DNA of 64,000 nucleotides from Verrucomicrobiota bacterium (GTDB lineage Bacteria > Verrucomicrobiota > Verrucomicrobiia > Opitutales > Cerasicoccaceae): positions 193,675-257,674 of the forward strand of contig JBCBUK010000007.1 of NCBI GenBank assembly GCA_039818205.1. The letters are read 5' to 3'. The position numbers were made by a program, and so were the translations under genes. This document shows positions 7,815-36,315 of this stretch, in pieces (position 1 is the first letter of the stretch; each line of letters begins with the position of its first letter). The notes under the pieces were generated by a model, which saw nothing but the letters and a program-made list of their open reading frames with translations, did not search any database and was not told the DNA's origin.

Positions 7815-7968
7815 GAAATATCGGAGGTTTGGAGAAAAGAAAAAGACTGAGATTCGACAGCGAAGTGACAATTGTTTTTTCAACTTGGGTGAAATTTGAC
7901 CCAAAATAGGGATAATAGGTCCTTATCGCTTGCGCCCTGCTGCTCGCTGGCGCTAGATGTTTTCCGCC

Positions 7969-9549: not shown

Positions 9550-9597
9550 TTTATCTCCGCCCCGTCCCCTGAAAAACAATCTCTCTTCACAAATACT

Positions 9598-10428: not shown

Positions 10429-10477
10429 GCCCTCGCGGCTTGCGATTCGCCCTATTTCAGTCATTGATAGGATTTCA

Positions 10478-10678
10478 ATGATGGATAAGAACAAACGTAT
10501 CGTGCGCCTACTTGTATTAGGTGCGGTGGCAATGATTGGTGGCCTTTTCACATCCGGTTGTGAATCTGCCGATCCACATGAAAGTGGTCTTCCATGGGCT
10601 CGACCCGCCCAGTGGGAAGGTGGCGCACCCGGATTGGGTGGCGGCGGTGGCCTGAATCAGGGCCGCACCGGCTACTAA
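10478..10678 (+). CDS. Small lipoprotein
   Basis: Basic N-terminus, hydrophobic stretch, lipobox-like TSG|C, then PWARPAQWEG. Confidence 0.7.
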   Translation: MMDKNKRIVRLLVLGAVAMIGGLFTSGCESADPHESGLPWARPAQWEGGAPGLGGGGGLNQGRTGY

Positions 10679-10727
10679 TCGAAAACATACCGTTGATTGC
10701 CCGCCCGTCGGTGGAAATGATGACTCC

Positions 10728-11453: not shown

Positions 11454-12520
11454 GACTTGGCATCATCGATATCGGCAGCAATTCCATTAAATTGCTTGTG
11501 GCCGAAACAGGATCAAATCTCGCCATTCACTACGAAACCACCTGGGAAACCCGGATCGGGACCAACCTGGGTGAAAGCGCTGGACCCATTCTAACGAAAA
11601 GCGCCGTCGAAAATGCCTGCAACGCCGTCAAATCTTTGATCGACGAAGCGGGCGGTTATAGCGTCGAACGTTTCTTCATCGCCGCAACTTCTGCGGTTCG
11701 CGATGCTCCCAATCGCGATGACTTCATTGAGGCCATTCATGAGACGACTGGCCAGAGGTTGCATATTTTGACGGGTGAAGAAGAAGCGGCCTACGTTGCC
11801 TGGGGAATCACCTCCGACCCAATCTTAAAACAATACAAGGAATTTTGCCTGGCAGACCTGGGCGGTGGAAGCCTCGAGCTCATCCATATACGCGACCGAC
11901 AGACGGTGAAAAAGGTCAGCTTACCGCTGGGTGCCATTCGTTTGTCCAAGCAGCTGCTGGAAGACCGGCGACTACCGATGAAATCAACGGAAATGCGGCG
12001 CATTGTTCGCCGTGTCCGCTCTAGCATTGATGATTCGGGTTTTATCTTTCCGCGTAATGTGAACGTTCTCGTTGGCACTGGCGGAGCGCTAACCGTAGCT
12101 CGAGCGATTCGGGCGGCGTGGTTAGGACAGGATGCGCAAGACTGCGGGCATTCTCTCAATTTGACCTTCCTCCGCCTGCTCTACGTTGAGCTTGCGGCAA
12201 TGACCCTTAAAGAGCGGATCTGCGTTCCCGAGCTTCCTGAAGAGCGTGCCGATATCATGCCCACGGCGCTATTGATTCTATTGACAGTCGCCGAGATGGC
12301 CGGGGTCGGATCCTACACCTACTCCGACTACAACCTTCGATATGGAATTGCGGCCAAGCTTTCCTCGGATCGCGCGATTGGACGCGGAGCACCGCCCTCA
12401 ATGCCCTATGGGCATGGTGGAAGCCTCAACAGCACCGCCGCCAGCAATTTATTTGCTGAGACGGAGAGCATTGTCCAACCGGGATCGATTACGCGAAGCG
12501 TCATCAAATACCCGAACTAG
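11450..12520 (+). CDS. Ppx/GppA family phosphatase
   Basis: IIDIGSNSIKL, ATSAVRDAPN, DLGGGSLE and LPLGAIRL motifs. Confidence 0.92.
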   Translation: MRLGIIDIGSNSIKLLVAETGSNLAIHYETTWETRIGTNLGESAGPILTKSAVENACNAVKSLIDEAGGYSVERFFIAATSAVRDAPNRDDFIEAIHETTGQRLHILTGEEEAAYVAWGITSDPILKQYKEFCLADLGGGSLELIHIRDRQTVKKVSLPLGAIRLSKQLLEDRRLPMKSTEMRRIVRRVRSSIDDSGFIFPRNVNVLVGTGGALTVARAIRAAWLGQDAQDCGHSLNLTFLRLLYVELAAMTLKERICVPELPEERADIMPTALLILLTVAEMAGVGSYTYSDYNLRYGIAAKLSSDRAIGRGAPPSMPYGHGGSLNSTAASNLFAETESIVQPGSITRSVIKYPN

Positions 12521-20884: not shown

Positions 20885-20960
20885 GCCACCTTAGCTCAGC
20901 TGGTAGAGCGGTTGATTTGTAATCTCCAGGTCGTCGGTTCGACTCCGACAGGTGGCTCCA
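20885..20960 (+). tRNA. tRNA-Thr(UGU)
   Basis: 76-nt cloverleaf: GCCACCT/AGGTGGC acceptor stem, GCTC/GAGC D stem, TTTGTAA anticodon loop, GTCGG-TTCGACT-CCGAC T arm, encoded CCA. The anticodon stem has two mismatches. Confidence 0.92.
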
Positions 20961-20962
20961 TT
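20911..20962 (+). repeat. attL: 52-bp direct repeat (3' part of tRNA-Thr)
   Basis: GTTGATTTGTAATCTCCAGGTCGTCGGTTCGACTCCGACAGGTGGCTCCATT, identical to 45469-45520. Confidence 0.95.
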
Positions 20963-20999
20963 TTTCCTGAAGGCTGAATCGCCTTTGAATATGCCAAAA

Positions 21000-21036
21000 C
21001 CCGCATCATTACTAAGATGGCGGGATTTTTTGTTTT
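21000..21036 (+). terminator. Intrinsic terminator after the tRNA, supplied by the element
   Basis: CCCGCATC...GATGGCGGG hairpin followed by ATTTTTTGTTTT. Confidence 0.65.
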
Positions 21037-21119
21037 CCAACCCCAGAGAGCGACTCGATTGAGATAGGAATTTCAAAATTGTTGAAAAATCCAGTATATT
21101 GGTCTATTCAGGTCTACCT

Positions 21120-22229
21120 ATGGGACGAAAGAAGAAAGGCGCACGGGTATACAGAATTAAGCATCCCACAATGAACTGGCAGGTAACGCTTACTCAGTCA
21201 GACGGACGCAAAATACGGGAATACTTCAAAAAGGAGTCGGACGCTAACAAACGAGCTGAAGAGCTCAACCAGAGAATACTGATCGAAGGAGTTGATGGGG
21301 TTTTATTTGGAGCCGAAGCTCGTGCGGAATACGCTGCTTGCAAACGCAAGCTAGCTGGACGAGATGTTTCCCTCCTCGCAGTCGTCGACGAATGGTTGAA
21401 CAGCCATCCGAAAACAATCAAAAAGGATTTTAGAGACGCGATTGACGAGTTTTGCGAGGCGAAACGGTCCGCAAATCGAAGAGAAATCACCATATCGAAG
21501 TACGCTCGGTGTCTCAAAGAGTTCCAGCTATTTTCGCTCCTATCAAGCATTGACCAAATCCAACCGCAACATTGCAGGAACTACCTACTACGGCCATCGT
21601 TAGCTCCTGCAACTATGCAAAATTACCGAGCCACACTGAGCAGTTTCTGTAGCTACTGCAGGAAGCGAGGCTGGCTAGAGACCGATCCATTAAAGTCGAT
21701 TGATCGTCCGACATTGGATGCAAACAATCCGGTTGTATTGTCCCCTGATGAGGTGGCGAGATTCATGGCTTGCTGCGCGAAGCTCAGCGATGGACGGATT
21801 GTTCGGGCGGTAGCTCTTCGACTTTTCGCGGGTTTACGCCCTGGGGAGCAAGAAGTGTTAACTGAGCGAGATATTCTAAAAGATGGGATTCGCGTTGGGG
21901 CGGGTAAGATTCGGGGCCGACGCTCGGTACGCATAGTGCCAATTTCATCAATCCTCAAGGGTTGGCTGGATGCGTTTCCTGATGCTTCGCTCCAACCAAC
22001 GAACTTCCGCAAGTTGCAGGAGCAAGCGATTGAGCAAGCTGGACTATCGAAGATTTGGGCAAAGGATATTCTCCGCCATACCTGGATCTCTTACCGGCTG
22101 GCCGAAACGAACGACGAACGGCTTGTCGCGCGGGAGGCAGGAAATTCGCCGGATATCATCTACCGGCACTACTTCCAGCTGGTTTCGGCTGACGACGTCG
22201 AGCGATTTGGGAAGTATTGCCTGCTTTAG
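21120..22229 (+). CDS. Tyrosine recombinase / phage integrase
   Basis: N-terminal arm-binding-like region, core-binding domain, catalytic AGLRPGE, DILRHTWISY and AGNSP...RHY; about 160 bp from attL. Confidence 0.93.
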   Translation: MGRKKKGARVYRIKHPTMNWQVTLTQSDGRKIREYFKKESDANKRAEELNQRILIEGVDGVLFGAEARAEYAACKRKLAGRDVSLLAVVDEWLNSHPKTIKKDFRDAIDEFCEAKRSANRREITISKYARCLKEFQLFSLLSSIDQIQPQHCRNYLLRPSLAPATMQNYRATLSSFCSYCRKRGWLETDPLKSIDRPTLDANNPVVLSPDEVARFMACCAKLSDGRIVRAVALRLFAGLRPGEQEVLTERDILKDGIRVGAGKIRGRRSVRIVPISSILKGWLDAFPDASLQPTNFRKLQEQAIEQAGLSKIWAKDILRHTWISYRLAETNDERLVAREAGNSPDIIYRHYFQLVSADDVERFGKYCLL

Positions 22230-22669
22230 CTTCCTGAATCCTCGAAGGAAACAATCGTTTTGTCGCCTTGGAATTGGTCATGTCCGGTGAGCGATGCGAA
22301 ATCGTCTCCCTGGAAGATCATCTGTTGTGGACGATCTTCTTGAGCAAAGACAGATTGAGCGTTGTAGGCCCGCCACGGCCAATCGTTAGGACGGTTTTCC
22401 CGAATGAACTCTTTCAGGGCTTCCATTCGATTGCATAGGCGCAATCCGTTATGGAGATTCTCGTTTGAATCGCTCGAATCCAATACCGGCGACTCCCATT
22501 CCGGAAGGGTCAGGTCAAGGTAGCTGATTTGCTGCTCTAGTAGCATGATTTCCTCGGTGAGCATTAGCAGGATTCGACGCCGCTCACTGAGATCGCTGTT
22601 TGCCCACAGCGCGCAGCGAAAATACCACGCAGCCGGGCGCATTGAGTGTTCTGCATTTGTGTCCGTCAT
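22226..22669 (-). CDS. Hypothetical protein of the element
   Basis: ORF convergent with the integrase and downstream of the RHH regulator; ATG at 22669 chosen. Confidence 0.6.
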   Translation of the reverse strand: MTDTNAEHSMRPAAWYFRCALWANSDLSERRRILLMLTEEIMLLEQQISYLDLTLPEWESPVLDSSDSNENLHNGLRLCNRMEALKEFIRENRPNDWPWRAYNAQSVFAQEDRPQQMIFQGDDFASLTGHDQFQGDKTIVSFEDSGS

Positions 22670-22726
22670 GTTACAAAGTATTGGACGAAGAATTGAAGTC
22701 TTGAGCTGTTTAGCGGTCAACGACAA

Positions 22727-23002
22727 TCAGCTGGCGGCCTTCTTTGCTTTGCCTGACCGTGATTTCCTCTTGTAGGGGCTGGCCGCATCCGTTGGCTCGG
22801 CCTGCGTCGTTTTTGCGGCTTTGGTAGTGGGAACCACCTTGAGTGGGCTGCTGATGTAGCCGTTTTCCTTGTAGAACTCAATTATGGCCCGCGCGGCGTG
22901 CCTGAGGAGCATGCCAGCGGGCATATCAACCTCTGCGCAAATTGCTTCGAACTCCTCTTTGAGGTCATCTTCCACGGTAACATTGATCTGTTTTCGAGCC
23001 AT
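22727..23002 (-). CDS. Ribbon-helix-helix family regulator (putative repressor)
   Basis: KQINVTVEDDLKEEFEAICAEVDM...LLRHAAR gives a beta-strand plus two helices; divergent from the replication operon. Confidence 0.7.
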   Translation of the reverse strand: MARKQINVTVEDDLKEEFEAICAEVDMPAGMLLRHAARAIIEFYKENGYISSPLKVVPTTKAAKTTQAEPTDAASPYKRKSRSGKAKKAAS

Positions 23003-23152
23003 GGTATAGAAAACCTACAATTTTTTTTCGAATTGTCGAGTTTTCTAAGTCAGTGATCCTTCGCGCCTTATCTGTATAGAGAAACTATATCGCGAGTAGG
23101 ATGTATATTTTTCTATTGTGAATATAGGTATCCTACGCATAAGTTTTCTTCC

Positions 23153-23398
23153 ATGAGCAAGAAGAACGAACTGAAGGACTGGGTAACGCCGGCATTTGTG
23201 GCTCGGCGGTTTTGTCTTAGTCCATCCACAATTTTGAAACACATCATCGCCGGAAACATTGAAGCGTTTCCGAGCCGCTTAAACAAAAAGGGCCGCCCGT
23301 CTGGTTTCCGCATAAAGCGGACTGAGGTCATGCGTTTGGATCGGTGCGGGATTCGTCCGCGCATCCACAATTTCAACAACGGCCTTCGCGCCATTTGA
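23153..23398 (+). CDS. Excisionase-like HTH DNA-binding protein
   Basis: WVTPAFVARRFCLSPSTILKHIIAGNIEA...FRIKRTEV matches the Xis/HTH_17 pattern; small and basic. Confidence 0.7.
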   Translation: MSKKNELKDWVTPAFVARRFCLSPSTILKHIIAGNIEAFPSRLNKKGRPSGFRIKRTEVMRLDRCGIRPRIHNFNNGLRAI

Positions 23399-23405
23399 GG
23401 GCCTT

Positions 23406-23609
23406 GTGATGCTGGACGAGAAAACAGACTACAACGTTATCATCTGCGAGCAATGCGGCGGCGTTGGTTATCACTGGTTCGAGGAACGGCTAGACGGGTA
23501 CGGAAAGAACACCCGCCAGCACAAGGAGGAGTGCTGCGCATGCCAGGGCTCGGGCCGTTTGTCCGTGGAGACCACGACACGCATCAAACCATTCGGAGTA
23601 TCCAGATGA
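23406..23609 (+). CDS. Small zinc-finger protein
   Basis: CEQCGGVG and CCACQGSG (two CxxCxGxG repeats); in the operon with the Xis-like gene. Confidence 0.65.
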   Translation: MMLDEKTDYNVIICEQCGGVGYHWFEERLDGYGKNTRQHKEECCACQGSGRLSVETTTRIKPFGVSR

Positions 23610-23748
23610 TCTCTACAGCATACCACTTTGGGCGACAGCAATTGGGCACAAAGCGTTTCTTGGCGCGAGGTCCTGAATCCCACATCGAGGAAAGAAGAGG
23701 AGCGAGCGCGATGAATCATTCTTCCTTTCTGCTCGTTGCAGTTACCCC

Positions 23749-23895
23749 GCTGGGTGGGTCTTTGGCTTTGCCAGGCCTGCCCAGCACTGACTTTTGCGCT
23801 CAACTCGTGTCAACCCGTCCGGCTTCGCAGGATGCGACCGGGCGGGATCAGGAGAGATTTCAGAATGACTTTATCACGGAGGGCTTGTTACCCCG
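23749..23895 (+). other. Putative rolling-circle double-strand origin
   Basis: Two long GC-rich hairpins (23749-23785, 23814-23846) and CTTGTTA (23884-23890) just upstream of rep. Confidence 0.45.
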
Positions 23896-23961
23896 TTTAA
23901 TCCAACTATTCGCACCCCCACTGCGGGTCGCAGGCGTAGCCGAAGACGGGAAGGCTCCTCA

Positions 23962-24924
23962 ATGAAACTTAACAAGATGGACCGCGGCGAAGCGTACTCG
24001 ATGGGTCGCACCGAAACCGCCTACGCCGACGAATACGCCAACAACGATTTACCTTCAGGTGAGATTCAAGTTCTGCCGTACCGGGCTAAGAGTTACCTTT
24101 GCGATGGTGGCGGACGATTGATTCATCGTGACATGGTGCGCCGGGGTATGCCGACCGATTTTACGGGCTGGTTGTTCGTTACGCTCACGCTCGATCGCGA
24201 GTTCTTCGACCACGACCCCGAGCTCGGATACTTAGTTGGCAAGGAGCGTATGCGACGCTTCTTCGATTACTTAAAGAAGCATGGTCACAAAATCGAAAAG
24301 TGGATTTGGAAGCTCGAGTTTCATCCCGAATCTCCCGAGTGGGTGCACTGGCATCTGCTATTGGATCATCGGAAGTTTGTGCCTTGGGAATTGATTCAGC
24401 GCGCTTGGAATCTTGGACGCGTCAACGTCGAGCGAGTCGAGAGTTACGCTCAGGGTCAACGCATCGGCGAGTATGAGTTTAAGTATGTCTTCAAGGAAGG
24501 CATGGGCCCGCCCAAGTGGCTGCTGAAGTATAAGCGCATTCGCTTCATCCAAACGAAGGGCATCTTCGAAAAGAAGTCTAAGACCAAAGATGAGACCGTC
24601 GAAGAGGAGCTAAACCGCAAAGAGGAACAGCACGCTTACGAAGGCAAAGACAACCGTAGCGAGTCGCCCACGATCGGTGAGCGCATGCAGATGTGGAAGC
24701 GCAAGATTACGGCGGTCTACGACACCGCTGAAGGTAAGCAAGTGCGGTCCTATGAACTCGTAACGACCGCCGAACGTTTCTTCGGCCACCTTTGGAATTT
24801 ACCAACTAACCTTCGGTGCTTGATGGCACCGTTTCACGCGATTGTTCGCAAACATCAAATAATACTAGATTATGTCAGAGTTAACAACCACCTCGCCACG
24901 CATCTCCAAGGCGCTCTTGGATAA
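23962..24924 (+). CDS. HUH-superfamily rolling-circle replication initiator (Rep)
   Basis: Motif I FVTLT, motif II KLEFH...VHWHLLL, motif III YEFKYVFK (YxxxY), in the Rep order. Confidence 0.85.
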   Translation: MKLNKMDRGEAYSMGRTETAYADEYANNDLPSGEIQVLPYRAKSYLCDGGGRLIHRDMVRRGMPTDFTGWLFVTLTLDREFFDHDPELGYLVGKERMRRFFDYLKKHGHKIEKWIWKLEFHPESPEWVHWHLLLDHRKFVPWELIQRAWNLGRVNVERVESYAQGQRIGEYEFKYVFKEGMGPPKWLLKYKRIRFIQTKGIFEKKSKTKDETVEEELNRKEEQHAYEGKDNRSESPTIGERMQMWKRKITAVYDTAEGKQVRSYELVTTAERFFGHLWNLPTNLRCLMAPFHAIVRKHQIILDYVRVNNHLATHLQGALG

Positions 24925-25372
24925 GTTCTTCATCCAGCCTGAGGCTGAGAAGCTCAAAGGAAAACACCACGTCGAAGGGCTACTGCTTGCCGGACGCGTT
25001 ACCACGATCAAGCACACGCCGCATACGAGCGAGAGAAATGGCGAGACCATCTTCAAAGTGCAAACGGCGATCGAGATCGAATCCGACGGGCGCAAGTATC
25101 AATACTCCAGTTGGTCGAACCTCAACGAGGGACAAGAACCCATCGAGCTTAAGCGCGATACGCATTACATCTTTAGCGTCGGAGGACTCAAGAGCCACCG
25201 AGTTACCGATGGCACTTATACCGATCGCAACGGAAACGAACGGGCTAACACGGTCGCCGAACTCACCGAGGTTCGCCGGCTAGAAGTAGCCGAGTTGGAA
25301 ATTCGCCCGAAGGGCGCGAGCTCCACGCCTTCGGATGCGGATGCGCGGCAGCGCGCCGCGACGAAGTCGTGA
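24872..25372 (+). CDS. Putative single-stranded DNA-binding protein (positional analogue of inovirus pV)
   Basis: Overlaps the end of rep, precedes the coat gene, beta-strand-rich OB-like pattern. The call is mainly positional. Confidence 0.5.
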   Translation: MSELTTTSPRISKALLDKFFIQPEAEKLKGKHHVEGLLLAGRVTTIKHTPHTSERNGETIFKVQTAIEIESDGRKYQYSSWSNLNEGQEPIELKRDTHYIFSVGGLKSHRVTDGTYTDRNGNERANTVAELTEVRRLEVAELEIRPKGASSTPSDADARQRAATKS

Positions 25373-25446
25373 GCTCCTTTCCTTGTTATACCTGTCGTAA
25401 CTGACGCCAAATTTCGTCGACGAACCAAACCAAAACCAAGATCAAA

Positions 25447-25647
25447 ATGAATCCATTCAAAAACATATGGGCCGTCTTCTTCTGCATGATGGCAACGACG
25501 TTTGCCCAAGTAACCACATCGGACCTAAGCGCGGTTGAAACCGCCGTGGGCGATGTCGAAACCATCTGGGGAACAATCGCTACGATCATCATCGGCGTTG
25601 CTGCCGTGATGGTGGGTAAGAAGTTCCTCCGAAGGGCAGGCTCCTAA
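25447..25647 (+). CDS. Filamentous-phage (inovirus) major coat protein-like
   Basis: 20-aa signal peptide (..ATTFA|) and a 46-aa mature chain with an acidic amphipathic N-part, hydrophobic TM (IWGTIATIIIGVAAVMVG) and basic tail (KKFLRR). Confidence 0.8.
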   Translation: MNPFKNIWAVFFCMMATTFAQVTTSDLSAVETAVGDVETIWGTIATIIIGVAAVMVGKKFLRRAGS

Positions 25648-25655
25648 ATCAACAC

Positions 25656-25688
25656 AGGGGCGGGCCATAAACCCGCCCCTTTTATTTT
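25656..25688 (+). terminator. Intrinsic terminator after the coat gene
   Basis: AGGGGCGGG-CCATAAA-CCCGCCCCT followed by TTTATTTT. Confidence 0.85.
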
Positions 25689-25785
25689 CGACTCGCGATG
25701 CGCGATGGAAATTGGTCTAACTTGGTTAGTGTGTGCCACCGGCGTGTTTCATTATGCAAATACTCGATAATCTAACTTCCGAGAA

Positions 25786-25802
25786 AAGAGATCAAGTCTC
25801 AC
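25786..25802. promoter_or_regulatory. 17-bp palindromic operator (putative iron/Fur-type box)
   Basis: AAGAGATCAAGTCTCAC, upstream of the Fe3+ ABC operon. Confidence 0.5.
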
Positions 25803-26017
25803 CATAAAGGCGTTGAATTTGAGAATGAAATTGCTCCCAAGTCGAAAACGCCTGCGGCCCAAATCGAAATTATCTATTGTTGTAAACCCTAGAAAAATAA
25901 CGATTTGCGTGAATCAAAAATACCAAAACTGAGAAAGAACCTAATTAGTCCTCCGAAAAGCAACCGCTATCACTACACATTCTATTATTTCGTCAAACGA
26001 TTGCTAGTCCAATTACA

Positions 26018-26046
26018 TTGACAAGCGACTTAGTCTCAATTTCATA
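26018..26046 (+). promoter_or_regulatory. Promoter of the iron ABC operon overlapped by the 17-bp operator
   Basis: TTGACA at 26018-26023; AAGCGACTTAGTCTCAA (26023-26039) fills the -35/-10 spacer. Confidence 0.6.
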
Positions 26047-26195
26047 AAGTCACAGTATCGAGACCACCGTAACAAAAATTTAACCAAAAATTTTCGATTC
26101 GGTATCGGGCTTTGGACGATCTTCCGAGACTGATTGATCATACGACCCCTCTAGCAAACAAATCTCTGAACACTTTTATATTGAGCGCGCCTACG

Positions 26196-27206
26196 ATGAA
26201 ACGAAGCAGTATCTCCCTTGTAATATTTGGTCTAATAGGATTTTCACTATCCTTAGATGCGCTGACGGTTTACAGCTTCCGACATTATCCAGCCGACGAT
26301 GCTTTGTTTGAAAAATTCACCGAGCAAACTGGCATTCCGGTAGAGGTTGTTAAAGCCAAAGCGGGAGCGCTCTTGGAACGCCTAGAAGCAGAAGGTGATC
26401 AGTCACCGGCGGACATTCTGATTACCTCTGACGCAGCCCGCCTGCACATAGCGACTGAGAAAGGTCTTTTGCAACCAATCGACTCACCGATCCTTAAAGA
26501 GCGGATTCCTCCTTACCTGCGTGACCCGAACGACAACTGGTTCGGTTTTACACAGCGAGCTCGAGTCTTCGTATACAATCCGGAATCTGTTTCTAGTAAA
26601 GACCTGACGACCTATGAAGATCTCGCCAATCCAGAGTGGCGAGGTCGGATTGTATGCCGTTCATCCTCTAACGTTTATAATCAGTCTTTGTTGGCATCAG
26701 TCATCGCAGCGGACGGAAAAGACGCTGCGATCAATTGGGCAAAAGGTGTAAGAAAGAACATGGCGCGCGCACCGCAGGGCAATGACCGGGACCAAATCCG
26801 CGCAGTAGCAAAGGGCTTAGCCGATCTCGCAATCGTGAACACCTACTACGTCGGTCTAATGTTGAATTCAGATGACCACAAAGACCGAAAAATCGCCCAA
26901 CGGCTAAAAATATTCTTCCCTAACCAGGCTAACCGCGGCACTCACATAAATATCAGCGGAGCAGGCATCACCAAAGCTTCGAAAAACATTGAGGATGCCA
27001 AAGCCTTTCTAGAATTTTTGGCATCCGATGAAGCCCAAAGCACATTCCCAAACGCAACTTACGAATATCCTGTAGTAAATGAGGTTGAGTGGTCCGAACA
27101 ACAAAAGGAGTGGGGCCAGTTTAAATCAGACACCCTATCACTAGACCTCCTAGGCGAGAATAACGCCAACGCGATTCGCGTATTCAACCTAGCGGGTTGG
27201 GAGTAA
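26196..27206 (+). CDS. fbpA: Fe(3+) ABC transporter substrate-binding protein (FbpA/FutA type)
   Basis: Signal peptide, VYSFRHY, RSSSNVYNQSL, GNDRDQI, NTYY iron-binding tyrosines, GTHINISGAG. Confidence 0.92.
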   Translation: MKRSSISLVIFGLIGFSLSLDALTVYSFRHYPADDALFEKFTEQTGIPVEVVKAKAGALLERLEAEGDQSPADILITSDAARLHIATEKGLLQPIDSPILKERIPPYLRDPNDNWFGFTQRARVFVYNPESVSSKDLTTYEDLANPEWRGRIVCRSSSNVYNQSLLASVIAADGKDAAINWAKGVRKNMARAPQGNDRDQIRAVAKGLADLAIVNTYYVGLMLNSDDHKDRKIAQRLKIFFPNQANRGTHINISGAGITKASKNIEDAKAFLEFLASDEAQSTFPNATYEYPVVNEVEWSEQQKEWGQFKSDTLSLDLLGENNANAIRVFNLAGWE

Positions 27207-27208
27207 AC

Positions 27209-28813
27209 GTGAATCGCCAATTGCAGCTGCGCCGAGCAGTTGACAGCTGGTCGATTAGCACGGTCGTCGTTTGTTTGGCGATCTTGACCCCGTTGGCAGT
27301 CATTTTCCTATCGGTTTTTAAGACAGCCCCCGACTGGCAGCACATCCAGTCTACTGTTCTCACCCTCTATATAGGCAATACACTCTTCCTAGTTTTCGCA
27401 GTAGGATTTGTCGCGTTTCTTTTCGCTGCACCGACTGCTTGGTTTGTGGTCTACTACGATTTCCCTGGCAAACGGTGGCTATCATGGGCCTTGGTCTTGC
27501 CCTTGGCGATTCCCACGTACGTCGCGGCCTTCACCTACTACGATTTATTAGACCACACGATACCCTTGATAGTTGCTGCAAGGAAAGCCTGGGGGTTTGA
27601 GGCCTCCCAAAGGTTGGAACAAATTCTTCGATACGGCTTGCTCGTCCTCCTGATGAGCAGTGTCCTCTACCCATACATCTTCTTTACTCTCCGGGCGTCA
27701 TTTATGCGCCAGCAAGCGGTTTTCCTAGAGGCAGGCCGTATGCTGGGCAAATCAACTGGCAGTATTTTCTGGCAGATCGCACTCCCCCTATCCAGACCAG
27801 CATTGGTGGCAGGCCTCGGCCTAGTGGCGATGGAAGTAATCAATGATTATGGCGCCGTCAATTTCTTTGGAGCTCCGACACTGACAGAAGGGATATTCCG
27901 AACTTGGTTCGGACTGGAGGATCAAGCATCGGCAATGCGCCTGGCCTTATCAATGACCGTGCTCGTCCTCATTTTGCTTGGATTTGAATTGTGGACCCGT
28001 CGACGGGTGCGCTTCGCGGCCGGAGAACTCGAAGGGCATAGCCTCATGCCAGTCCGAATTCGCGGGTACAAGGGTTGGCTGATTACATTCATATGTATTG
28101 TTCCTCTTTTCACAGGATTTCTTTTCCCTGTCTTCCGCCTGCTACATTGGGCCGTGCTTTCATTTGGAGATTTTGACTTTTCTACCATTGGCCCACAGAT
28201 AACCAAAAGCTTAATACTCGCGGCCACAACTACCGTTATACTCGGAGCTGTCGCATTACTATTCGCGTTTTGCGGACGAGTACACCCTAGTCTAAGTCTT
28301 CGCCGAATAATTCGTGTAGCAACCATAGGATATGCGATACCTGGTGCAGTCATTGCAGTCGGCGTTATGACCTTGTTCGGCACGGTCGACCAAATGGTTT
28401 CTCATCACATCCTTGGCGGAAGCCTATTTGCGCTTGGGTTCGCTTACCTCATTCGGTTCCTCACGATTGCATACCAACCACTTGATGCGGGGATGAATAG
28501 CGTTGGTCAAAGCCTTCTTGATGCATCGTTCATTCTAGGCAGGTCGAGAATTCAAACGCTTCTAAGAATACACCTCCCTTTGTTGATGCCAGTGCTGCTT
28601 GCGGCATCAATTCTCGTCTTTATCGATATCCTTAAAGAACTTCCGCTTACTTTGATCCTGCGGACAAGTGACTTTGAAACACTAGCAACCTATGCTTTCG
28701 GATTTGCAAAAGAGGGCGCAATCTATGATTGTTCCATACCGTCGCTTTGTATTATCTTGGCCGGCAGCGTTGGTTTGATTCTGGCCAATCGTTGGATGCG
28801 GCCTAGCACATAG
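27209..28813 (+). CDS. fbpB: Fe(3+) ABC transporter permease
   Basis: Duplicated BPD permease with LPLAIPTYV, LPLSRPA and ILKELPLTLILR motifs; GTG start. Confidence 0.92.
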   Translation: MNRQLQLRRAVDSWSISTVVVCLAILTPLAVIFLSVFKTAPDWQHIQSTVLTLYIGNTLFLVFAVGFVAFLFAAPTAWFVVYYDFPGKRWLSWALVLPLAIPTYVAAFTYYDLLDHTIPLIVAARKAWGFEASQRLEQILRYGLLVLLMSSVLYPYIFFTLRASFMRQQAVFLEAGRMLGKSTGSIFWQIALPLSRPALVAGLGLVAMEVINDYGAVNFFGAPTLTEGIFRTWFGLEDQASAMRLALSMTVLVLILLGFELWTRRRVRFAAGELEGHSLMPVRIRGYKGWLITFICIVPLFTGFLFPVFRLLHWAVLSFGDFDFSTIGPQITKSLILAATTTVILGAVALLFAFCGRVHPSLSLRRIIRVATIGYAIPGAVIAVGVMTLFGTVDQMVSHHILGGSLFALGFAYLIRFLTIAYQPLDAGMNSVGQSLLDASFILGRSRIQTLLRIHLPLLMPVLLAASILVFIDILKELPLTLILRTSDFETLATYAFGFAKEGAIYDCSIPSLCIILAGSVGLILANRWMRPST

Positions 28814-28814
28814 T

Positions 28815-29546
28815 ATGCTCGAGATAGCGAACATTCGTAAAGTCTACGAGAACGACAGCCATGCAGCCGTCGAGGATGTCTCGTTGGAGCTCCCAGCGGG
28901 CAAAATCATTACGCTGCTTGGTGAAAGCGGATGTGGTAAAACTACCCTGCTCCGAATGATCGCTGGACTCGCTGTTCCAAACGAAGGAGAAATTCGCTTG
29001 AACAACGAATTGATGGTCGGGCCATCGACTTGGGTCCCACCACAGAAGCGAAAAATCGGTATGGTCGCACAAGGCGGTGCTCTCTTTCCCCACATGACGG
29101 TTTTCAAAAACATCGCTTATGGACTCTCACATTTGAACAAAAATGAACGCCTGGACCGCATTCGCCAGAAGCTCGAGCTGGTCGGGCTAGCAGACAAACA
29201 ACATCGCTATCCCCATGAACTCTCGGGCGGCGAGCGCCAGCGTATTGCACTCATTCGTGCCCTAGCCCCTAGCCCACGATTGATCTTATTGGACGAGCCA
29301 TTCAGCAACCTAGACACGACGCGAAAGAAACTCTTGCGAACTGAAGTTCGGTCCATCCTAAAGCGAGAGAATATGACTGCGATCCTCGTTTCTCACGATC
29401 CACAAGACGCACGACACTTCGGCGATCTTATCGCTATCATGCGCTCCGGAAGAATTAGTCAAAGCGGAACAAAAGAAGAGATCATCAGCCATCCATGCAA
29501 TGAATATTGCTCCGAACTAATCGGTGAGATCGGTAAAGACTCTTAA
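28815..29546 (+). CDS. fbpC: Fe(3+) ABC transporter ATP-binding protein
   Basis: GESGCGKT, LSGGERQR and LLDEPFSNLD; short form with no obvious C-terminal TOBE domain. Confidence 0.9.
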   Translation: MLEIANIRKVYENDSHAAVEDVSLELPAGKIITLLGESGCGKTTLLRMIAGLAVPNEGEIRLNNELMVGPSTWVPPQKRKIGMVAQGGALFPHMTVFKNIAYGLSHLNKNERLDRIRQKLELVGLADKQHRYPHELSGGERQRIALIRALAPSPRLILLDEPFSNLDTTRKKLLRTEVRSILKRENMTAILVSHDPQDARHFGDLIAIMRSGRISQSGTKEEIISHPCNEYCSELIGEIGKDS

Positions 29547-29564
29547 AGCGTTCATAGTAGAAAT

Positions 29565-29591
29565 GGGCCGACGGATTTTCTCCGTCGACCC
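29565..29591 (+). terminator. Hairpin after the iron ABC operon
   Basis: GGGCCGACGGA-TTTTC-TCCGTCGACCC; weak U tract. Confidence 0.45.
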
Positions 29592-29708
29592 TGGTCATGC
29601 TTGGCTTATTTGCGTATGGATGTAGAGTAGCAGGTGATCGCAAAATTGAACGTGCAGATTCATTGGATCTGCACCAAACGCGTTGAGGGTAGAACGAACA
29701 AAATCAGT

Positions 29709-29742
29709 GTCCGTTGACGGGGGCTGACTCCCGCCAACGGAC
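29709..29742 (-). terminator. Terminator hairpin after the PEP-CTERM gene
   Basis: 13-bp stem GTCCGTTGGCGGG/CCCGTCAACGGAC on the minus strand, followed by T-rich sequence. Confidence 0.6.
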
Positions 29743-29748
29743 GGTGCA

Positions 29749-30423
29749 TTATCGACGCATACGGCGCATCAAGAGAAGTCCACTGGCAACACCAAAGATA
29801 AGCGCATAAGTCGAGGGTTCTGGAATGACAGTTCCTTCGAATGCGTTTCCGCTATCAAGTTGCATCGCGAAACTCGCAGAATGGGCGATCGAATCCCATT
29901 CTATGGTAAAGTCAGAAATCGTTACGCCAATAGCAGAGAGATCCCACTGATATGCATTAATCGTGGAGGGGCTTCCGCCAAAAGCGAAATTTCCAGACAT
30001 ATTTTCTGAAATATCTGCAGCGAGCTCTTGCGCTCCACCATTATAGCTCAATGTCGGGCCACCAGAAATCGCGCCGACCATATCAATCTGAAAAACGACT
30101 GTTTCGAGACCTGAGATTGGAGAAGACGCACTAATGAAGAACGAACCAGGAGTGTCGAAATTATAGATCGAAGTCGAAGCCGGGTATCCACCGCCCCCAG
30201 CAACCTTGTCAAACGTGACAGATCCGACGTCCGCGGAAATTGGAGTGCTCCATCCAGCCGTGTTCGTAAAGAAGCTATTGTAGCCCGATGAGGTAGGATA
30301 GTTTGATGAGTTCAGATCCTCCCAGCTTGACCGTTGTGAAAGTCCGGGGAGAGCTACGTTTAAGACTCCAAAACTGGGCGTGAGACCGGCCAGTAGTGCC
30401 GTGAGAATGAGTTCTTTTTTCAT
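29749..30423 (-). CDS. PEP-CTERM sorting domain protein
   Basis: Signal peptide; C-terminal IPEPSTYALIFGVASGLLLMRRMRR. Confidence 0.92.
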   Translation of the reverse strand: MKKELILTALLAGLTPSFGVLNVALPGLSQRSSWEDLNSSNYPTSSGYNSFFTNTAGWSTPISADVGSVTFDKVAGGGGYPASTSIYNFDTPGSFFISASSPISGLETVVFQIDMVGAISGGPTLSYNGGAQELAADISENMSGNFAFGGSPSTINAYQWDLSAIGVTISDFTIEWDSIAHSASFAMQLDSGNAFEGTVIPEPSTYALIFGVASGLLLMRRMRR

Positions 30424-30455
30424 TGATTATTGAGTAGTTGACAGTGCCAATTCGA

Positions 30456-30552
30456 TTGAAACTCGGTCTCAATCGCAAATATGGTGCGACTAAATCTCAA
30501 CATTATACTTGAAGTCAACAGAAAATTTAAATTTATTGCAATCAAGTCTCAT
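30456..30552. promoter_or_regulatory. Three 17-bp palindromic operators in a divergent promoter
   Basis: TTGAAACTCGGTCTCAA (30456-72), GTGCGACTAAATCTCAA (30484-500), TTGCAATCAAGTCTCAT (30536-52). Confidence 0.7.
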
Positions 30553-30607
30553 GTGCATGAAGATTGTGTCATATTGCTAACCATTTAATAAACAATAAGC
30601 TACAAAG

Positions 30608-31063
30608 ATGAACTCCCTCCCTATTGACATTATTTATGGAACCGTTACCGGAAATGCCCAAGATCTAGCCGAAAAACTGTCTGATCGATGCGATCAAATC
30701 TCAATACCATGCACGCTGACTGCCGCGGAGGACTGGGACAATGAGCGCTTTAAACAACCAAATCGGAGAACCGTATTGATATTCTCAACCTGGGGTGATG
30801 GCGAGCCGCCTGACGACGCGATTGAATTCTGCGAGAACATCTACGACAAGAAAGTCGATGTGCACCAGCTCCAGTATGTTGTGGTCGCTCTTGGCGACAG
30901 CGCCTACGATGATTTTTGCGGATGCGGTCGGCGGCTCGATGAGTCCTTAAGTGCTGCTGGCGCAACCAAGATCATGGACCGAGTAGAGCTCGATGTCGAT
31001 TTCGATGATGATTTCGACGCCTGGATGGAAAACTTTCTGAACGGCGCAACCGCACCCTGCTAA
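30608..31063 (+). CDS. Flavodoxin (short-chain, MioC/CysJ-N-like)
   Basis: YGTVTGNA, STWGDGEPPD and LGDSAYDDFCG FMN-binding motifs. Confidence 0.92.
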   Translation: MNSLPIDIIYGTVTGNAQDLAEKLSDRCDQISIPCTLTAAEDWDNERFKQPNRRTVLIFSTWGDGEPPDDAIEFCENIYDKKVDVHQLQYVVVALGDSAYDDFCGCGRRLDESLSAAGATKIMDRVELDVDFDDDFDAWMENFLNGATAPC

Positions 31064-31082
31064 AACTATCCTCACTACCACA

Positions 31083-32039
31083 ATGAAGAAAGATCCTTTA
31101 TCATCTAAGAAAAAGAACTGCGGTTCGGTGCCAGAACAGTGCCCTTGCTGCAAAAGCACTCAACTCGAGGTCGAACGGGCATGCGAACTGCAGCCTCAGT
31201 TTAACGAAATCCTTGGCGACCTTTCAAAGCTTGGGTTGCTACTCTGCTTCGCCCGTAACCGAAGTTGCAGTATTGGTGTCGCCGGATGCGTTCCCGACCT
31301 ACTGACCGACAAAACATCCTCAGCTGGTTGCAACTACGATATGAACCTACACCTGAACACGCCCGCCTGGCAATACGCCTACTCAGTGCATGAACGGAAT
31401 AGCAATGGGGGTTCTTTCATCGGCATGGAGTTTTTCGACAAGAATCACAATGGCCTATTTCGCATAGCACTAACGCCTGATTCCGAGGTACAAGAATTCC
31501 AGAACATCACTCGAAACTACTATCGCCGCCCAGTCTCAGCAGAGGAGATCGGCACCTGGAGGCGAATGGCAGAACTAACGCCTTTGAACGAGGCGAACCA
31601 CACACCTATCAGCGAGAGCTTTATACAAAAAGACTCTTGGAGTGCGCCGCTCGTGAGTTCCGAACGACAGGAAACGAACGATGAAATGGGCTTTAGCGGC
31701 CACCTACCGCTCTGCCGCACAGCGCTCGCCGAAGCGCTCAACGACAACGCGGAGTTAGTTCTTACTGTTGCTGGCGGCTTCGGGCGCGTATGCACAACCT
31801 TTGCCCCGAAAGTCTTGGAAGATGCTCAGCGAGGTTGGCTATTTGCCGGCGGAGACGGCCGAATGCTACGCTTTAATCCGTGTGCAGTTGCGACCTATTG
31901 GATCGGGAAGCATGAAACCCCAAAAGAGTCTTACAGCTACCTAGAAGCAGTCGATTGCTTTGGTGACTTGATTCTAAGAATCACGTCCTACAACCCCGAC
32001 AGCCATCGGAATTGGCAAGCACTTGCCTCTGCATTCTAG
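31083..32039 (+). CDS. Divergent HemS/ChuS/ChuX-like heme-utilisation protein
   Basis: Two repeated domains with the HemS-like pattern (LGLLLCFARN...NLHLN...WQYAYSVHE...MEFFD...LFRIALTPDS) in an iron context. Confidence 0.6.
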   Translation: MKKDPLSSKKKNCGSVPEQCPCCKSTQLEVERACELQPQFNEILGDLSKLGLLLCFARNRSCSIGVAGCVPDLLTDKTSSAGCNYDMNLHLNTPAWQYAYSVHERNSNGGSFIGMEFFDKNHNGLFRIALTPDSEVQEFQNITRNYYRRPVSAEEIGTWRRMAELTPLNEANHTPISESFIQKDSWSAPLVSSERQETNDEMGFSGHLPLCRTALAEALNDNAELVLTVAGGFGRVCTTFAPKVLEDAQRGWLFAGGDGRMLRFNPCAVATYWIGKHETPKESYSYLEAVDCFGDLILRITSYNPDSHRNWQALASAF

Positions 32040-32132
32040 CCGAAAATTAGCAACGTTAAGAATACATTCGGGCTGAAAGAAACAATCAGATCTCTCTGAC
32101 CCGAACCCCAACAACAATTGGCCAAACGAGTC

Positions 32133-32603
32133 CTAGCGGTTGCAACTACAACCGATCCTTATCTGTTCGAATCGAGCACGGATATGGACTGAGATTTCGG
32201 CGTCTTCATGGCTGCGGTTAGGATGAAGATATCGCCGACGCAACTCTCGGCAGGAATCTTCTACAGGAATCGTTTCTCCGCAATCCTCGCAAAAAATATA
32301 GACCCTCGCACTGGATCTAATAACTACTTCATACAGTTGTTTTTTTTCAATTCCAACAACACGACGAATCAACTTACATTCCTCAAGAAGAGATAGTGTG
32401 CGATAGATGGATGTAATGGAAATCGAGCGATCCTCAGAACGAACGACTTCGAACAACTCTCGAGCATTGAACGCTCTATCGTAGACAAAGAGTGATCTTA
32501 CAATCAATCGCCGGGCACTCGAAACCTTGTGACCGGAAACCCTAATCGTGTTCTCGAAATGCTCGAGAACATCAGAATGATCAATGTCATAGGATTCGTC
32601 CAT
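32133..32603 (-). CDS. Fur-family transcriptional regulator, degenerate metal site
   Basis: Fur winged helix (ISITSIYRTLSLLEECKLI) and CEDCG retained; the His-rich motif is absent. Confidence 0.82.
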   Translation of the reverse strand: MDESYDIDHSDVLEHFENTIRVSGHKVSSARRLIVRSLFVYDRAFNARELFEVVRSEDRSISITSIYRTLSLLEECKLIRRVVGIEKKQLYEVVIRSSARVYIFCEDCGETIPVEDSCRELRRRYLHPNRSHEDAEISVHIRARFEQIRIGCSCNR

Positions 32604-32867
32604 TGTGAGAGGGGTTTAACCGCAGATTGAAGAACGAGACTTTCGATAAGGACCAATCAAACTACATCGATGATACTGTGTCACAAGTGCATCGAGCCTT
32701 TTTTTTGGCCCCAGAAGAAGTTAGACTGTCTGTTCAGCTTGCCTTGGAACTCAAAAGGACCTGGATAGCGGGCGCTAAATTTTCGTCCCCAGGCCAATCG
32801 CAATAAGAAAAGTCTCTCAACAAAGAGGCACACCGCTTCGTTCCTCGCCTAAAGATCACTTCAGCTA

Positions 32868-32972
32868 ATGCAATGAATTAGCATTTTTGAAAAAGGCGTT
32901 TTTAAAACTGAAAAACCAATTTTCCTCTTGAAAACGAGTCGCATTATCCATCTTCTCGCAACTGCGTCGCAT
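32868..32972. promoter_or_regulatory. 17-bp operator copies upstream of the pilin operon
   Basis: TTGAAAACGAGTCGCAT (32928-44), TCGCAACTGCGTCGCAT (32956-72), and a weaker ATGCAATGAATTAGCAT (32868-84). Confidence 0.6.
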
Positions 32973-33021
32973 TCTCACGGAAAACCTGTGTTGCCCGCAA
33001 AAATTCTAAATAATATAAACC

Positions 33022-33792
33022 ATGACTACCAAACCACAAAACAAGCGCTACAAGTCGCACAAGGGTCTTACTCTTGTTGAGCTACTCGTAGTTCTCGTAG
33101 TACTCGTCGCTACAGGCGGTCTGCTCGTTCCAACTATTAACAACGCTTTGTCACGTAGCCACGTCGCTACCTGCGCAACTTCTTTCCCTGAAGTTCATCA
33201 GATGATGCAACGAGTTCAGATCGAAGCCGGCCAATTCGGAACTGACTTCGATTCAGGCCTGGACACTGCAGACACCACCACTCCTGTTAACTCGGTGCCA
33301 TTCGCAGGTGCAACTCTTCAAGCTGTTGCATTGACTGCCGCCGAAGCTGATGCGCTGGCTGCAGTCGGTATCACTACCGTCGTTGATCACGACGCAACTG
33401 CCGCTGACTACAACGTCACCTTCAATATCGGCTCAACACAACGGACACTTGGTGACGGCGAAGAAGTCATCACTTTGACCGACGCCCAAGCTGACGGAGT
33501 ATTCCTCCCAAGCGCTGGTGCAGAGAAGTACATCTGGCTCGGCATTGGCCGCGACTGGTCGCTGCTCAGCACTTTGGCTCCAGAACCACCAGTTCACTTC
33601 GGTGACACACCAGGTTCTTTGCCAGACGAAGTTCACTCTCGTTTCGGTATCATCATGCAAGTAGCAGACGAAGCTGGTGACGCTCTCGAAGCAGCTGAGT
33701 TCAAGCGTATCAGCTACTGCATCGACGGTGACGGTTTCGAAACTGGCGACAACCACATCGAAGTCTACTGGCAAGAGATTGCCCAGAACTAG
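33022..33792 (+). CDS. Type IV prepilin-like protein (candidate major pilin)
   Basis: Class III signal KSHKG|LTLVELLVVL with E5. Confidence 0.9.
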   Translation: MTTKPQNKRYKSHKGLTLVELLVVLVVLVATGGLLVPTINNALSRSHVATCATSFPEVHQMMQRVQIEAGQFGTDFDSGLDTADTTTPVNSVPFAGATLQAVALTAAEADALAAVGITTVVDHDATAADYNVTFNIGSTQRTLGDGEEVITLTDAQADGVFLPSAGAEKYIWLGIGRDWSLLSTLAPEPPVHFGDTPGSLPDEVHSRFGIIMQVADEAGDALEAAEFKRISYCIDGDGFETGDNHIEVYWQEIAQN

Positions 33793-33828
33793 TTTCTTGC
33801 TAGTTACAGACCGTCAAATGTTTAAGAC

Positions 33829-33859
33829 GGGGCGCATCGAGCAACTCTCGATGCGTCCC
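33829..33859 (+). terminator. Intra-operon hairpin after the first pilin
   Basis: GGGGCGCATCGAG-CAACT-CTCGATGCGTCCC followed by TTCTCCATTTTT. Confidence 0.65.
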
Positions 33860-33885
33860 TTCTCCATTTTTAAGATTCAAATACG

Positions 33886-34644
33886 ATGAAAAGAAAAACA
33901 GCACATTTCCCCGATCGCCATAGCGGTTTGACCCTCGTTGAACTACTCGTCGTACTGACAATCATTACGGCGGTCGCTACAATCATTATTCCGATCCTTC
34001 CAGACACTAACCAACTGTCGAACGGTTCAACCGGATCAGGAAATATGCGAGAAGTCATCAAGGCCGTTGAGACACATCGCAGTGCAACTGGCAGCTACCC
34101 GAATAGCTGGGATAGCCTAATTGATGCCGACGGAGATATTCTACCAACCGGAGGAACGGCTGATCTCGAAGTGCTAGACATCAGCTCTCCGACCGCGAAT
34201 TCCGACGAGGAAGCAATCGCCAATGCCCTGGCAAATGCAGATATCACCGAGGCATTTCAACACAACGACTTTACTGATACAGGAGTAAATCAGACCTTCG
34301 CTGGCGTAAACAACGCCGTAGACGAACTTGGAGCTGGAAATGTAGCGGTTCTCACGACAGCCGGTGAACTTGGCCTCGGATTGAATGCAAGTGGCGGCGA
34401 CATCGTCCGCTATGTTGCATTTGGCCTTGGAAACAACAGCACAATGATTGGACGTACAATGGCTGATGCTCCCGTCAAGTTTCTTGGCGGCGGAGACAAC
34501 CCTAGAAGCCAATACGCGCGTTGGATTGTCGTCTTTAGCGTATTCTCTGATGAGTCCCTCCGCCTAGCGACGGTCGCAGGACTTGATGATGATCAGCTGC
34601 GCGGAATCAATTTCCACATCGACGGATTTTACGACGCATTCTAG
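33886..34644 (+). CDS. Type IV prepilin-like protein, paralogous to the first
   Basis: RHSG|LTLVELLVVL; shares WDS/FDS, GLG/GIG and APV/PPV motifs with 33022-33792. Confidence 0.9.
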   Translation: MKRKTAHFPDRHSGLTLVELLVVLTIITAVATIIIPILPDTNQLSNGSTGSGNMREVIKAVETHRSATGSYPNSWDSLIDADGDILPTGGTADLEVLDISSPTANSDEEAIANALANADITEAFQHNDFTDTGVNQTFAGVNNAVDELGAGNVAVLTTAGELGLGLNASGGDIVRYVAFGLGNNSTMIGRTMADAPVKFLGGGDNPRSQYARWIVVFSVFSDESLRLATVAGLDDDQLRGINFHIDGFYDAF

Positions 34645-34702
34645 AGCATTTTGATAGTTTCTTGGGTAAGCTCTCTCATCCTTCTCTGTGCACAGTTCCA
34701 CT

Positions 34703-35314: not shown

Positions 35315-35348
35315 CCGAGTGCCCTACTCTTCGAAAACAAAGCCTCCT

Positions 35349-36314: not shown

Positions 36315-36315
36315 G

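Follow-up and report, generated by a model that had tools for sequence, protein, structure and literature searches.

How should one read a stretch of DNA in which the replication and coat genes of a filamentous phage lie beside a tRNA gene and the genes for phage assembly are missing? This question is raised by positions 20911-25712 of the window analysed here, a 64-kb stretch (G000:C7:193675-257674) of the 4.85-Mb genome G000 of a Verrucomicrobiota bacterium. Coordinates refer to the window unless a contig is named; C numbers denote contigs, and the other G numbers denote genomes of relatives. A preliminary description made from the letters alone had proposed an inovirus-like replication and coat module in a verrucomicrobial host, with the order integrase, hypothetical protein, ribbon-helix-helix (RHH) repressor, Xis-like protein, Zn-finger protein, replication protein (Rep), single-stranded DNA-binding (SSB)-like protein, a 66-aa protein, and a terminator. 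We found all of these in place, and the eight open reading frames (ORFs) from integrase to coat are all uninterrupted. The lineage and named relatives (Cerasicoccus frondis, Ruficoccus, and Puniceicoccales) support a verrucomicrobial host. Our results indicate that 20911-25712 is probably the left half of an inovirus-type (Tubulavirales-like) prophage of a Cerasicoccus-like host, which has lost its assembly genes.

The phage origin of the module is carried mainly by two proteins. Pfam assignments were judged against the curated bit-score cut-offs, and PHROG and NCBIfam profiles were searched as well. The 320-aa HUH rolling-circle Rep (23962-24924, plus strand) matches PF23343 (REP_ORF2-G2P), a Rep family associated with inoviruses and plectroviruses, with 35.4 bits (cut-off 27.8). 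Its translation holds the motifs FVTLT, HWHLL, and YEFKY; an alignment of 26 homologues shows no variation at H129, W130, H131, Y171, F173, K174, and Y175, and all 26 carry PF23343. The earlier reading of an HUH Rep from FVTLT, HWH, and YEFKY thus holds. The 66-aa major coat precursor (25447-25647, plus strand) matches PF05356 (Inovirus Coat protein B) with 26.0 bits (cut-off 23.5), and this is the only PF05356 match in the six-frame translation of the 4.85-Mb genome, while none was found in 14 control genomes. Its signal peptide is predicted to end at TFA, just before a Q (site read by eye), and the 46-aa mature chain, as read from the sequence, has an acidic N-terminus, a hydrophobic core, and a basic C-terminus (KK..RR), in line with the coat protein that had been proposed. 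The strong terminator expected behind it is also present, as an intrinsic terminator at 25656-25690 (plus strand) with a 9-11 bp GC stem and a T-run, and it is conserved in C35, another contig of the same genome. We read the module as inovirus-derived because Rep and coat pass these cut-offs and because the same Rep-SSB pair precedes coat, gene III-like, and Zot genes in the relatives G005 and G013.

The 66-aa protein could alternatively be a VirB2/TrbC-type pilin, in which case the locus would be a non-phage rolling-circle integrative plasmid or mobilisable element. TrbC/VirB2 (PF04956) is indeed its second Pfam match (15.3 bits), the positional counterpart in G013 matches TrbC (21.8 bits) and not PF05356, and the family genomes do contain small integrative elements that bear a Rep but have no coat gene. 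However, both TrbC scores fall under the 27.9-bit cut-off, whereas the PF05356 score is above its own. When a profile of six coat-position proteins was compared with 177,635 distinct PDB sequences, the best matches, both weak, were inovirus coats (Pf3 major coat, 1ifp, E 0.031; PH75 coat, 1hgv, E 0.19), and no pilin was found in this set. Furthermore, a gene III-like ORF and Zot follow the coat gene in G005, in G013, and at the start of C35, the coat gene comes directly after the SSB-like gene in G005 and G013, and no conjugation gene was seen in a Pfam scan of the island. A VirB2-type pilin, named beforehand as the rival to be checked, is thus not supported, and we regard the plasmid explanation as extremely improbable.

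The complete form of such an element is seen in Cerasicoccus frondis NBRC 105381 contig35 (G005:C35), which holds a complete prophage at tRNA-Thr(CGT), bounded by attachment (att) repeats of the 3' part of the tRNA (at least 40 nt) that lie 13.6 kb apart. Its left part runs from tRNA-Thr(CGT) through the integrase, four cargo ORFs, a homologue of the window's 166-aa ORF, RHH, Xis, and Zn-ribbon, and its right part comprises Rep (71%), SSB (77%), two coat-like ORFs, a 483-aa ORF, a 115-aa ORF, and a 380-aa Zot (45.1 bits). The four cargo ORFs between integrase and regulators (192, 162, 456, and 308 aa; positions 2836-6247 of locus L025) have no counterpart in the window. In G013:C20 the order is Rep (54%), SSB (52%), a 93-aa ORF in the coat position, a 581-aa ORF, and a 398-aa Zot (43.5 bits). 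The 483-581 aa ORFs of the two genomes are gene III-like, the 115-aa ORF of G005 is gene VI-like, and PHROG 197/1675 ('protein I of M13') match as well as Zot.

We surveyed the 16 genomes of the GTDB family by comparing Rep places with the coordinates of Zot (PF05707) matches. Rep matches were found at 18 places in 11 of the 16 genomes. At seven of these places Zot lies 2.8-3.9 kb downstream on the same strand, so Rep loci of this kind do co-occur with pI/Zot genes; nine places, including the window and one stop-broken copy, have no nearby Zot, and the remaining two are on contigs that are too short. Zot-less loci with a more distant PF23343-type Rep occur in G003:C29, G012:C33, G009:C1 (twice), G015:C10, G002:C1, and G008:C1. 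There Rep is followed by an overlapping, beta-rich ORF of about 100-115 aa and then by cargo ORFs, with no coat gene seen; at least two of them (L042 and L043) have a large integrase-like ORF, which in L042 is preceded by a Xis-like ORF (integrase calls and cargo functions were judged by eye). These loci look like small integrative rolling-circle elements. Another arrangement, found in G002:C6:252000-271999, G009:C1:2902000-2921999, and G013:C20:148176-158336, consists of two Zot modules placed back to back on opposite strands over about 12 kb, and in each pair one module is without a detectable Rep of this family.

A tblastn search with Rep in 50,697 deposited phage records gave no match, and a Rep profile gave none among PDB sequences at E ≤ 1. 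A pattern scan of genome contigs with six close Reps returned one true locus, and a 21-residue match in a gammaproteobacterial metagenome-assembled genome was set aside. The corresponding scans for close relatives gave 80 pattern matches in IMG/VR viral contigs and 303 in JGI metagenome contigs, none of which was confirmed.

Where does the phage sequence end in the window? The answer comes from C35. Window positions 25533-25712 align with the terminal 180 nt of C35 at 91.7% identity (blastn), with 15 of 180 positions differing. C35 starts within a coat gene that shares its last 37 aa with the window's coat, the two alleles differing upstream of residue 30 of the precursor; the coding stretch for these 37 aa contains four nucleotide differences, all silent, and the next 65 non-coding nucleotides contain 11. 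Behind the coat fragment and the same terminator, C35 has a 605-aa ORF, whose product combines a signal peptide with an acidic middle and a hydrophobic C-terminus, then a small membrane ORF and a 388-aa Zot (76.9 bits; also PHROG 197/1675, 'protein I of M13'). Homology to C35 stops at 25712, after the fifth codon of the 605-aa gene, which corresponds to gene III, so that the breakpoint lies between 25712 and 25713. Past it, 20 unrelated codons lead to a stop, which leaves a gene III stump at 25698-25775 (plus strand) that is closed after 25 codons in all, five of them homologous. By the alignment with C35 and by Pfam, no gene III- or gene VI-like gene follows the coat gene of the window (tblastn with the C35, G005, and G013 proteins covered other loci), the ORFs past 25713 being transporter and type II secretion system (T2SS) genes. 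No Zot match was found on the window's contig, and those in the genome are confined to C35 and C42. The filamentous prophage proposed in the preliminary description is therefore present as an inovirus-derived module and not as a complete prophage, since it ends five codons into gene III and has no Zot. Likewise, the expectation that detectors based on pI would not find the element holds for this copy, but the lineage, and even the same genome, does carry pI. A few genes past Zot, C35 also contains an open-ended 1755-aa ORF with an RHS repeat match (C35 3-5267, minus strand), which may be host or cargo.

The end of C35 inside the coat gene, in an assembly that is fragmented at phage-related repeats (the end of C2, the start of C16, C42, and C45), could suggest a chimeric assembly at 25712/25713, with the window's coat gene truly continuing as C35 in a complete prophage. 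Sequencing data speak against this. The 15 differences in 180 positions mean that two versions of the coat C-terminus, the terminator, and the start of gene III exist. In addition, an 11,284-nt Logan contig of X1, the sole run carrying the window stretch, covers 25545-27000 with no differences and extends 168 nt to the left of the join, although it probably derives from the same reads as the assembly and is thus not fully independent. Another X1 contig leaves the window sequence at 25712 and enters the exact continuation found in C35. Both forms of the join exist, and the join in the window is not obviously an assembly error; we consider a chimera very unlikely.

The same run points to further copies. 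X1 contigs that are 88-99% alike to the window across about 22100-25700 have depths of 47-115, and the variant that runs on into C35 has a depth of 51.7, it being understood that contig depth is not copy number. Depth is 22.1 (20911-22010) and 20.7 (from 25545) on the window-specific contigs and 35.9 on the left chromosomal flank; the lower depth of the island contigs may mean that the island is absent from part of the population, or that a second strain is present. In the assembly, C16 begins within a homologue of the 166-aa gene (89% over 28 aa), and an integrase paralogue at its start (60% aa identity) adjoins tRNA-Thr(CGT); a second paralogue at the end of C2 (76%) adjoins tRNA-Lys(CTT). 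C45 carries a second Rep (33-36% identity; PF23343, 58.9 bits), and C42 a second Zot (49 bits). The genome would thus appear to hold at least one complete prophage whose regulatory, replication, and coat part matches the window half at about 92% identity; it would run from the start of C16 through unassembled variant contigs to C35. A second and more distant prophage would be made up of the end of C2, C45, and C42. Right after Zot, C35 (7709-8005) and C42 (3201-3389) share a near-identical short ORF start, though their Zot proteins differ, which suggests mosaic exchange between the two phage types.

On the left, the element is bounded by tRNA-Thr(TGT) (20885-20960, plus strand), as called by ARAGORN. 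Its 3' 50 nt lie inside a 52-bp repeat at 20911-20962 (attL), which covers the tRNA from the anticodon arm on, with 2 nt beyond its end, and recurs exactly (100% in blastn) at 45469-45520 (attR, plus strand). A pattern search with a 25-mer of this repeat gave two matches in the window, where none was expected, and no third degenerate copy was found in the window at up to three mismatches. The att-bounded unit measures 24.6 kb, of which 4.75 kb are phage and 19.8 kb non-phage. The latter part (25713-45468) encodes, by Pfam, an iron ATP-binding cassette transporter, flavodoxin, HemS/ChuX, Fur, four N-methyl pseudopilins, two T2SSE ATPases, T2SSF, and a 742-aa secretin. The part with the T2SS/T4P-like cluster (38000-45468) and the iron-transporter part (up to 30000) were searched in the relatives. 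The T2SS-like part gave short DNA matches only in five genomes of the same genus and 69% identity with G008 of another genus, and no long same-genus DNA match was found for the iron-transporter part. A dispersed repeat of about 100 bp at 44632-44730 recurs on C26, C16, and C38 at 81-87% identity, and C24 has a shorter match of 53 nt.

The tRNA-Thr locus is an island hot spot. In the same-genus genome G001 (C13, regions 1-12000 and 27584-27662), a full tRNA-Thr and a partial repeat lie 24.7 kb apart, and the partial repeat is followed by a homologous integrase that is apparently frameshifted (two tblastn pieces in different frames), with an unrelated second integrase nearby. With two att copies and two integrases at this tRNA, elements therefore do pile up there.

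The remaining genes of the phage half are those of integration and control. Behind the tRNA lies a terminator-like hairpin with a T-run (21000-21036, plus strand, read from the sequence). Since the complete G005 prophage is arranged in this way behind its attL as well, the hairpin was probably supplied by the left end of the phage. The tyrosine integrase (21099-22229, plus strand; 376 aa from a TTG at 21099, with an ATG at 21120) matches phrog_1 (integrase) at E 4e-29 and has SAM-like N-terminal domains in Pfam, and NCBIfam gives weak XerC/D-type matches only. It is followed by the 166-aa ORF of unknown function (22226-22726, minus strand), which has no Pfam, PHROG, or NCBIfam match and in an Atlas search gave scores of at most 0.83, which is noise level; it is nevertheless conserved in related elements, with tblastn relatives on C45, C42, and C16 and in G005 and G003. 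Next to it, the 91-aa RHH/Arc-like putative repressor (22727-23002, minus strand) shows weak profile matches (RHH_1, E 0.15; Arc-like PHROG, E 0.015; RelB/DinJ, E 0.0025), is divergent from the rightward operon, and shares 76% aa identity with its G005 counterpart. That operon begins with an 81-aa Xis/helix-turn-helix-like ORF (23153-23398, plus strand), 87.5% identical to that of G005 and with sub-cut-off matches to HTH_17 (E 0.016) and a PHROG excisionase (E 0.021). Thus, the ORFs previously called RHH repressor and Xis-like are present, but their family matches stay below the cut-offs. The following 67-aa Zn-ribbon ORF (23406-23609, plus strand) has two CxxCxGxG motifs and matches phrog_7429 (E 6.6e-6) and, below the cut-off, DnaJ_CXXCXGXG (E 0.0025).

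The region between the Zn-ribbon ORF and rep (23610-23961, plus strand) is a candidate operator or origin, as judged from a DNA alignment with G005. A hairpin region had been noted here, and local hairpins are present in 23600-23970, but the folding does not exceed that of shuffled sequence (z -1.0; 20 of 100 shuffles fold equally well). The last 85 nt or so before rep are kept in G005 and contain a small hairpin, CTGCG-GGT-CGCAG. An 84-codon frame at 23711-23965 was considered as a gene and rejected for now, as it has no family match and its alignment with G005 needs a 17-nt gap; it is more likely conserved DNA upstream of rep.

The 166-aa product of 24872-25372 (plus strand), whose gene overlaps that of Rep by 53 nt, is a putative ssDNA-binding protein; its gene-V position next to Rep and its OB-like predicted fold are suggestive of this function. 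It has no match in Pfam, PHROG, or NCBIfam, and only two relatives, one at 73% identity and one weak, were found among 1.84 billion representative proteins, which makes it an orphan family. An AlphaFold2 (AF2) model from a four-sequence alignment has a mean predicted local distance difference test (pLDDT) score of 63.9, with a core of five strands (residues 36-140) at about 70-86. Foldseek found nothing in the PDB at E ≤ 0.001, and its top rows, from E 3.7e-3 upward, are OB-fold ssDNA binders (RPA domains, SSB, and PriB). VIA-align against 48,161 chains gave a best Z of 7.2, a value in the range rated middling, for the ssDNA-binding domain of RPA70, in a list made up mostly of OB-fold nucleic-acid binders. 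Atlas scores of 0.92 for viral hypothetical clusters and 0.85 for a Putative_G5P cluster are leads only. Of the earlier SSB-like call, the gene-V position stands, whereas the fold match is middling and a family match is lacking. A search for a link between this family and the ORFs of about 100-115 aa that follow the distant Reps showed none (hhalign probability 1.1%; Pfam, 0 of 7).

Several observations weigh against our reading of 20911-25712 as half of a prophage. The SSB assignment is only suggestive (Foldseek E ≥ 3.7e-3, VIA-align Z 7.2, no family match), and the RHH and Xis calls fall under the Pfam and PHROG cut-offs. Searches against the G005 right end and the whole genome found no phage right end near attR or in 25713-26111, and yielded only the att core and a 57-nt overlap with C35. 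An empty site could not be defined, as the tRNA and left flank of G002 are on different contigs and the right flank is matchless in 30 relatives. As to how the two parts came together, the simplest history, though a guess, is that phage and island once stood one behind the other at the tRNA and that a deletion then removed everything from gene III up to and including the middle att site; the 19.8 kb could also have arrived otherwise.

If the half-prophage reading is correct, the genes for assembly and adsorption (gene III-like, gene VI-like, and pI/Zot) would have been lost by a deletion or recombination starting five codons into gene III, and the phage half would now be fused to iron-uptake and T2SS-like genes, with a single pair of 52-bp att repeats around both. 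A divergent repressor and operon are the usual lysogeny switch of integrating Pf-type inoviruses, and the RHH-like gene, facing the operon of Xis, Zn-ribbon, Rep, SSB, and coat, would form such a switch here. Int and Xis would excise the entire 24.6-kb unit, Rep would nick at an origin that probably lies in the conserved DNA just ahead of rep, ssDNA would be sequestered by the OB-like protein, and the coat protein would enter the membrane via its signal peptide. Without pI, pIII, and pVI, this copy alone would make no particle, so that it could spread only with the help of complete relatives sharing its cell.

Is the truncated copy then a dead remnant, or does it make use of such relatives? 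Ordinary prophage decay is most likely, and we rank it first. The alternative, a working helper-dependent satellite comparable to RS1 and TLC, would excise once induced, replicate by means of its own Rep, and be packaged and exported by pIII, pVI, and pI of a complete co-resident inovirus, maybe together with the 19.8-kb cargo in a long filament. Its eight ORFs are intact, and the deletion has left the coat gene and its terminator exactly whole. Complete morphogenesis modules are co-resident (C35 and C42); the identity of the last 37 aa of the coat with those of the complete copy, with silent differences only, would be compatible with such a helper, even if these differences could predate the truncation. 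Judging by the X1 variants that are 88-99% alike over 22100-25700, the putative helper has its regulatory, Rep, and coat modules in common with the window. By annotation only, the element lacks morphogenesis genes and keeps replication and integration genes, and Zot-less Rep loci are as common as complete ones in the family (9 of 18 versus 7 of 18). Moreover, filamentous satellites without morphogenesis genes are an established kind, according to passages of PMC3545932.

On the other hand, the breakpoint inside gene III looks accidental rather than like a designed end, and among the 16 family genomes this truncated architecture did not recur for this Rep lineage, the two closest Rep/coat relatives (P0002/P0030 and P0003/P0029) lying on contigs of 29,547 bp and 2,279 bp outside this search. 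The window-specific X1 contigs (20.7-22.1) are not deeper than the flank (35.9) and give no sign of amplification. The excisable unit of 24.6 kb is about 1.8 times the 13.6-kb G005 prophage. Taken together, we consider a working satellite possible but doubtful. It is clearly less probable still that the whole 24.6-kb unit is a helper-dependent filamentous 'hitch-hiker', which upon induction of the complete inovirus in the cell would excise, replicate as ssDNA, and leave in long filaments made partly of its own coat; if true, it would be the filamentous counterpart of phage-inducible chromosomal islands and would move a secretion system between Verrucomicrobiota.

The half-prophage described here belongs to a family of tRNA-integrating inovirus prophages that our results document in marine Verrucomicrobiota resembling Cerasicoccus and Ruficoccus. 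Detection centred on pI overlooks such half-phages, which are common here, 9 of 18 Rep places being Zot-less. A truncated copy and a complete relative of about 92% identity in one cell also provide a natural pair for the satellite question outside Vibrio.

As predicted prophages, inoviruses are not new for the phylum. Roux et al. 2019 detected inoviruses around pI-like genes, and in their supplement Verrucomicrobia are a validated inovirus host group with four species, one example being an 11,868-bp element of Opitutaceae bacterium TAV1 (PMC6813254). Puniceicocc- and Coraliomargarita names do not occur in the examined parts of that supplement, nor is the phylum Verrucomicrobia named in the consulted parts of the main text (PMC6813254). 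Our literature search on inoviruses and this phylum found no isolated filamentous phage of Verrucomicrobia. The earlier statement that no characterised filamentous phage of this group was known therefore stands as far as isolates within this search are concerned, although predicted Verrucomicrobia inoviruses had already been published (PMC6813254). Like those elements, the window element is a computationally detected integrated inovirus of the same phylum, a likeness by description only. In another phylum of the Planctomycetes-Verrucomicrobia-Chlamydiae (PVC) group, deep-sea Lentisphaerae strains release chronic inoviruses that are reported to be extrachromosomal (passages of PMC11361711). The likeness to the window element, whose host is also of the PVC group, is again by description only.

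Two known systems are comparable in layout. Pf1/Pf4-like inoviruses of Pseudomonas have their own tyrosine integrase, integrate at tRNA genes, and possess an excisionase-like partner and a divergent repressor, and their genes follow the order Rep, ssDNA-binding protein, and major coat of about 46 mature residues. The window element likewise has a tRNA-site integrase, a Xis-like gene, a divergent putative repressor, and the order Rep, putative ssDNA-binding protein, and coat, and morphogenesis genes follow downstream in its complete relatives. Unlike Pf1/Pf4, the window copy is without genes III, VI, and I, its Rep has no match among the 50,697 phage records, and its SSB candidate is an orphan.

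The second system is that of RS1 and TLC of Vibrio cholerae. The ORFs of RS1 are not known to include a coat gene or an integrase. According to passages of PMC3545932, RS1 consists of four ORFs (rstR, rstA, rstB, and rstC), RS1 and TLC are integrated beside complete phages and have their own replication and regulation genes without morphogenesis genes, and complete filamentous phages can supply them with capsid and assembly proteins. Both integrate via host XerC/D, according to the abstract of PMC4246890. The window element resembles them in being integrated, phage-derived, and without morphogenesis genes, with a complete relative co-resident. Unlike them, it retains a major coat gene, a candidate SSB, and an integrase of its own, and 19.8 kb of cellular-type genes are joined to it.

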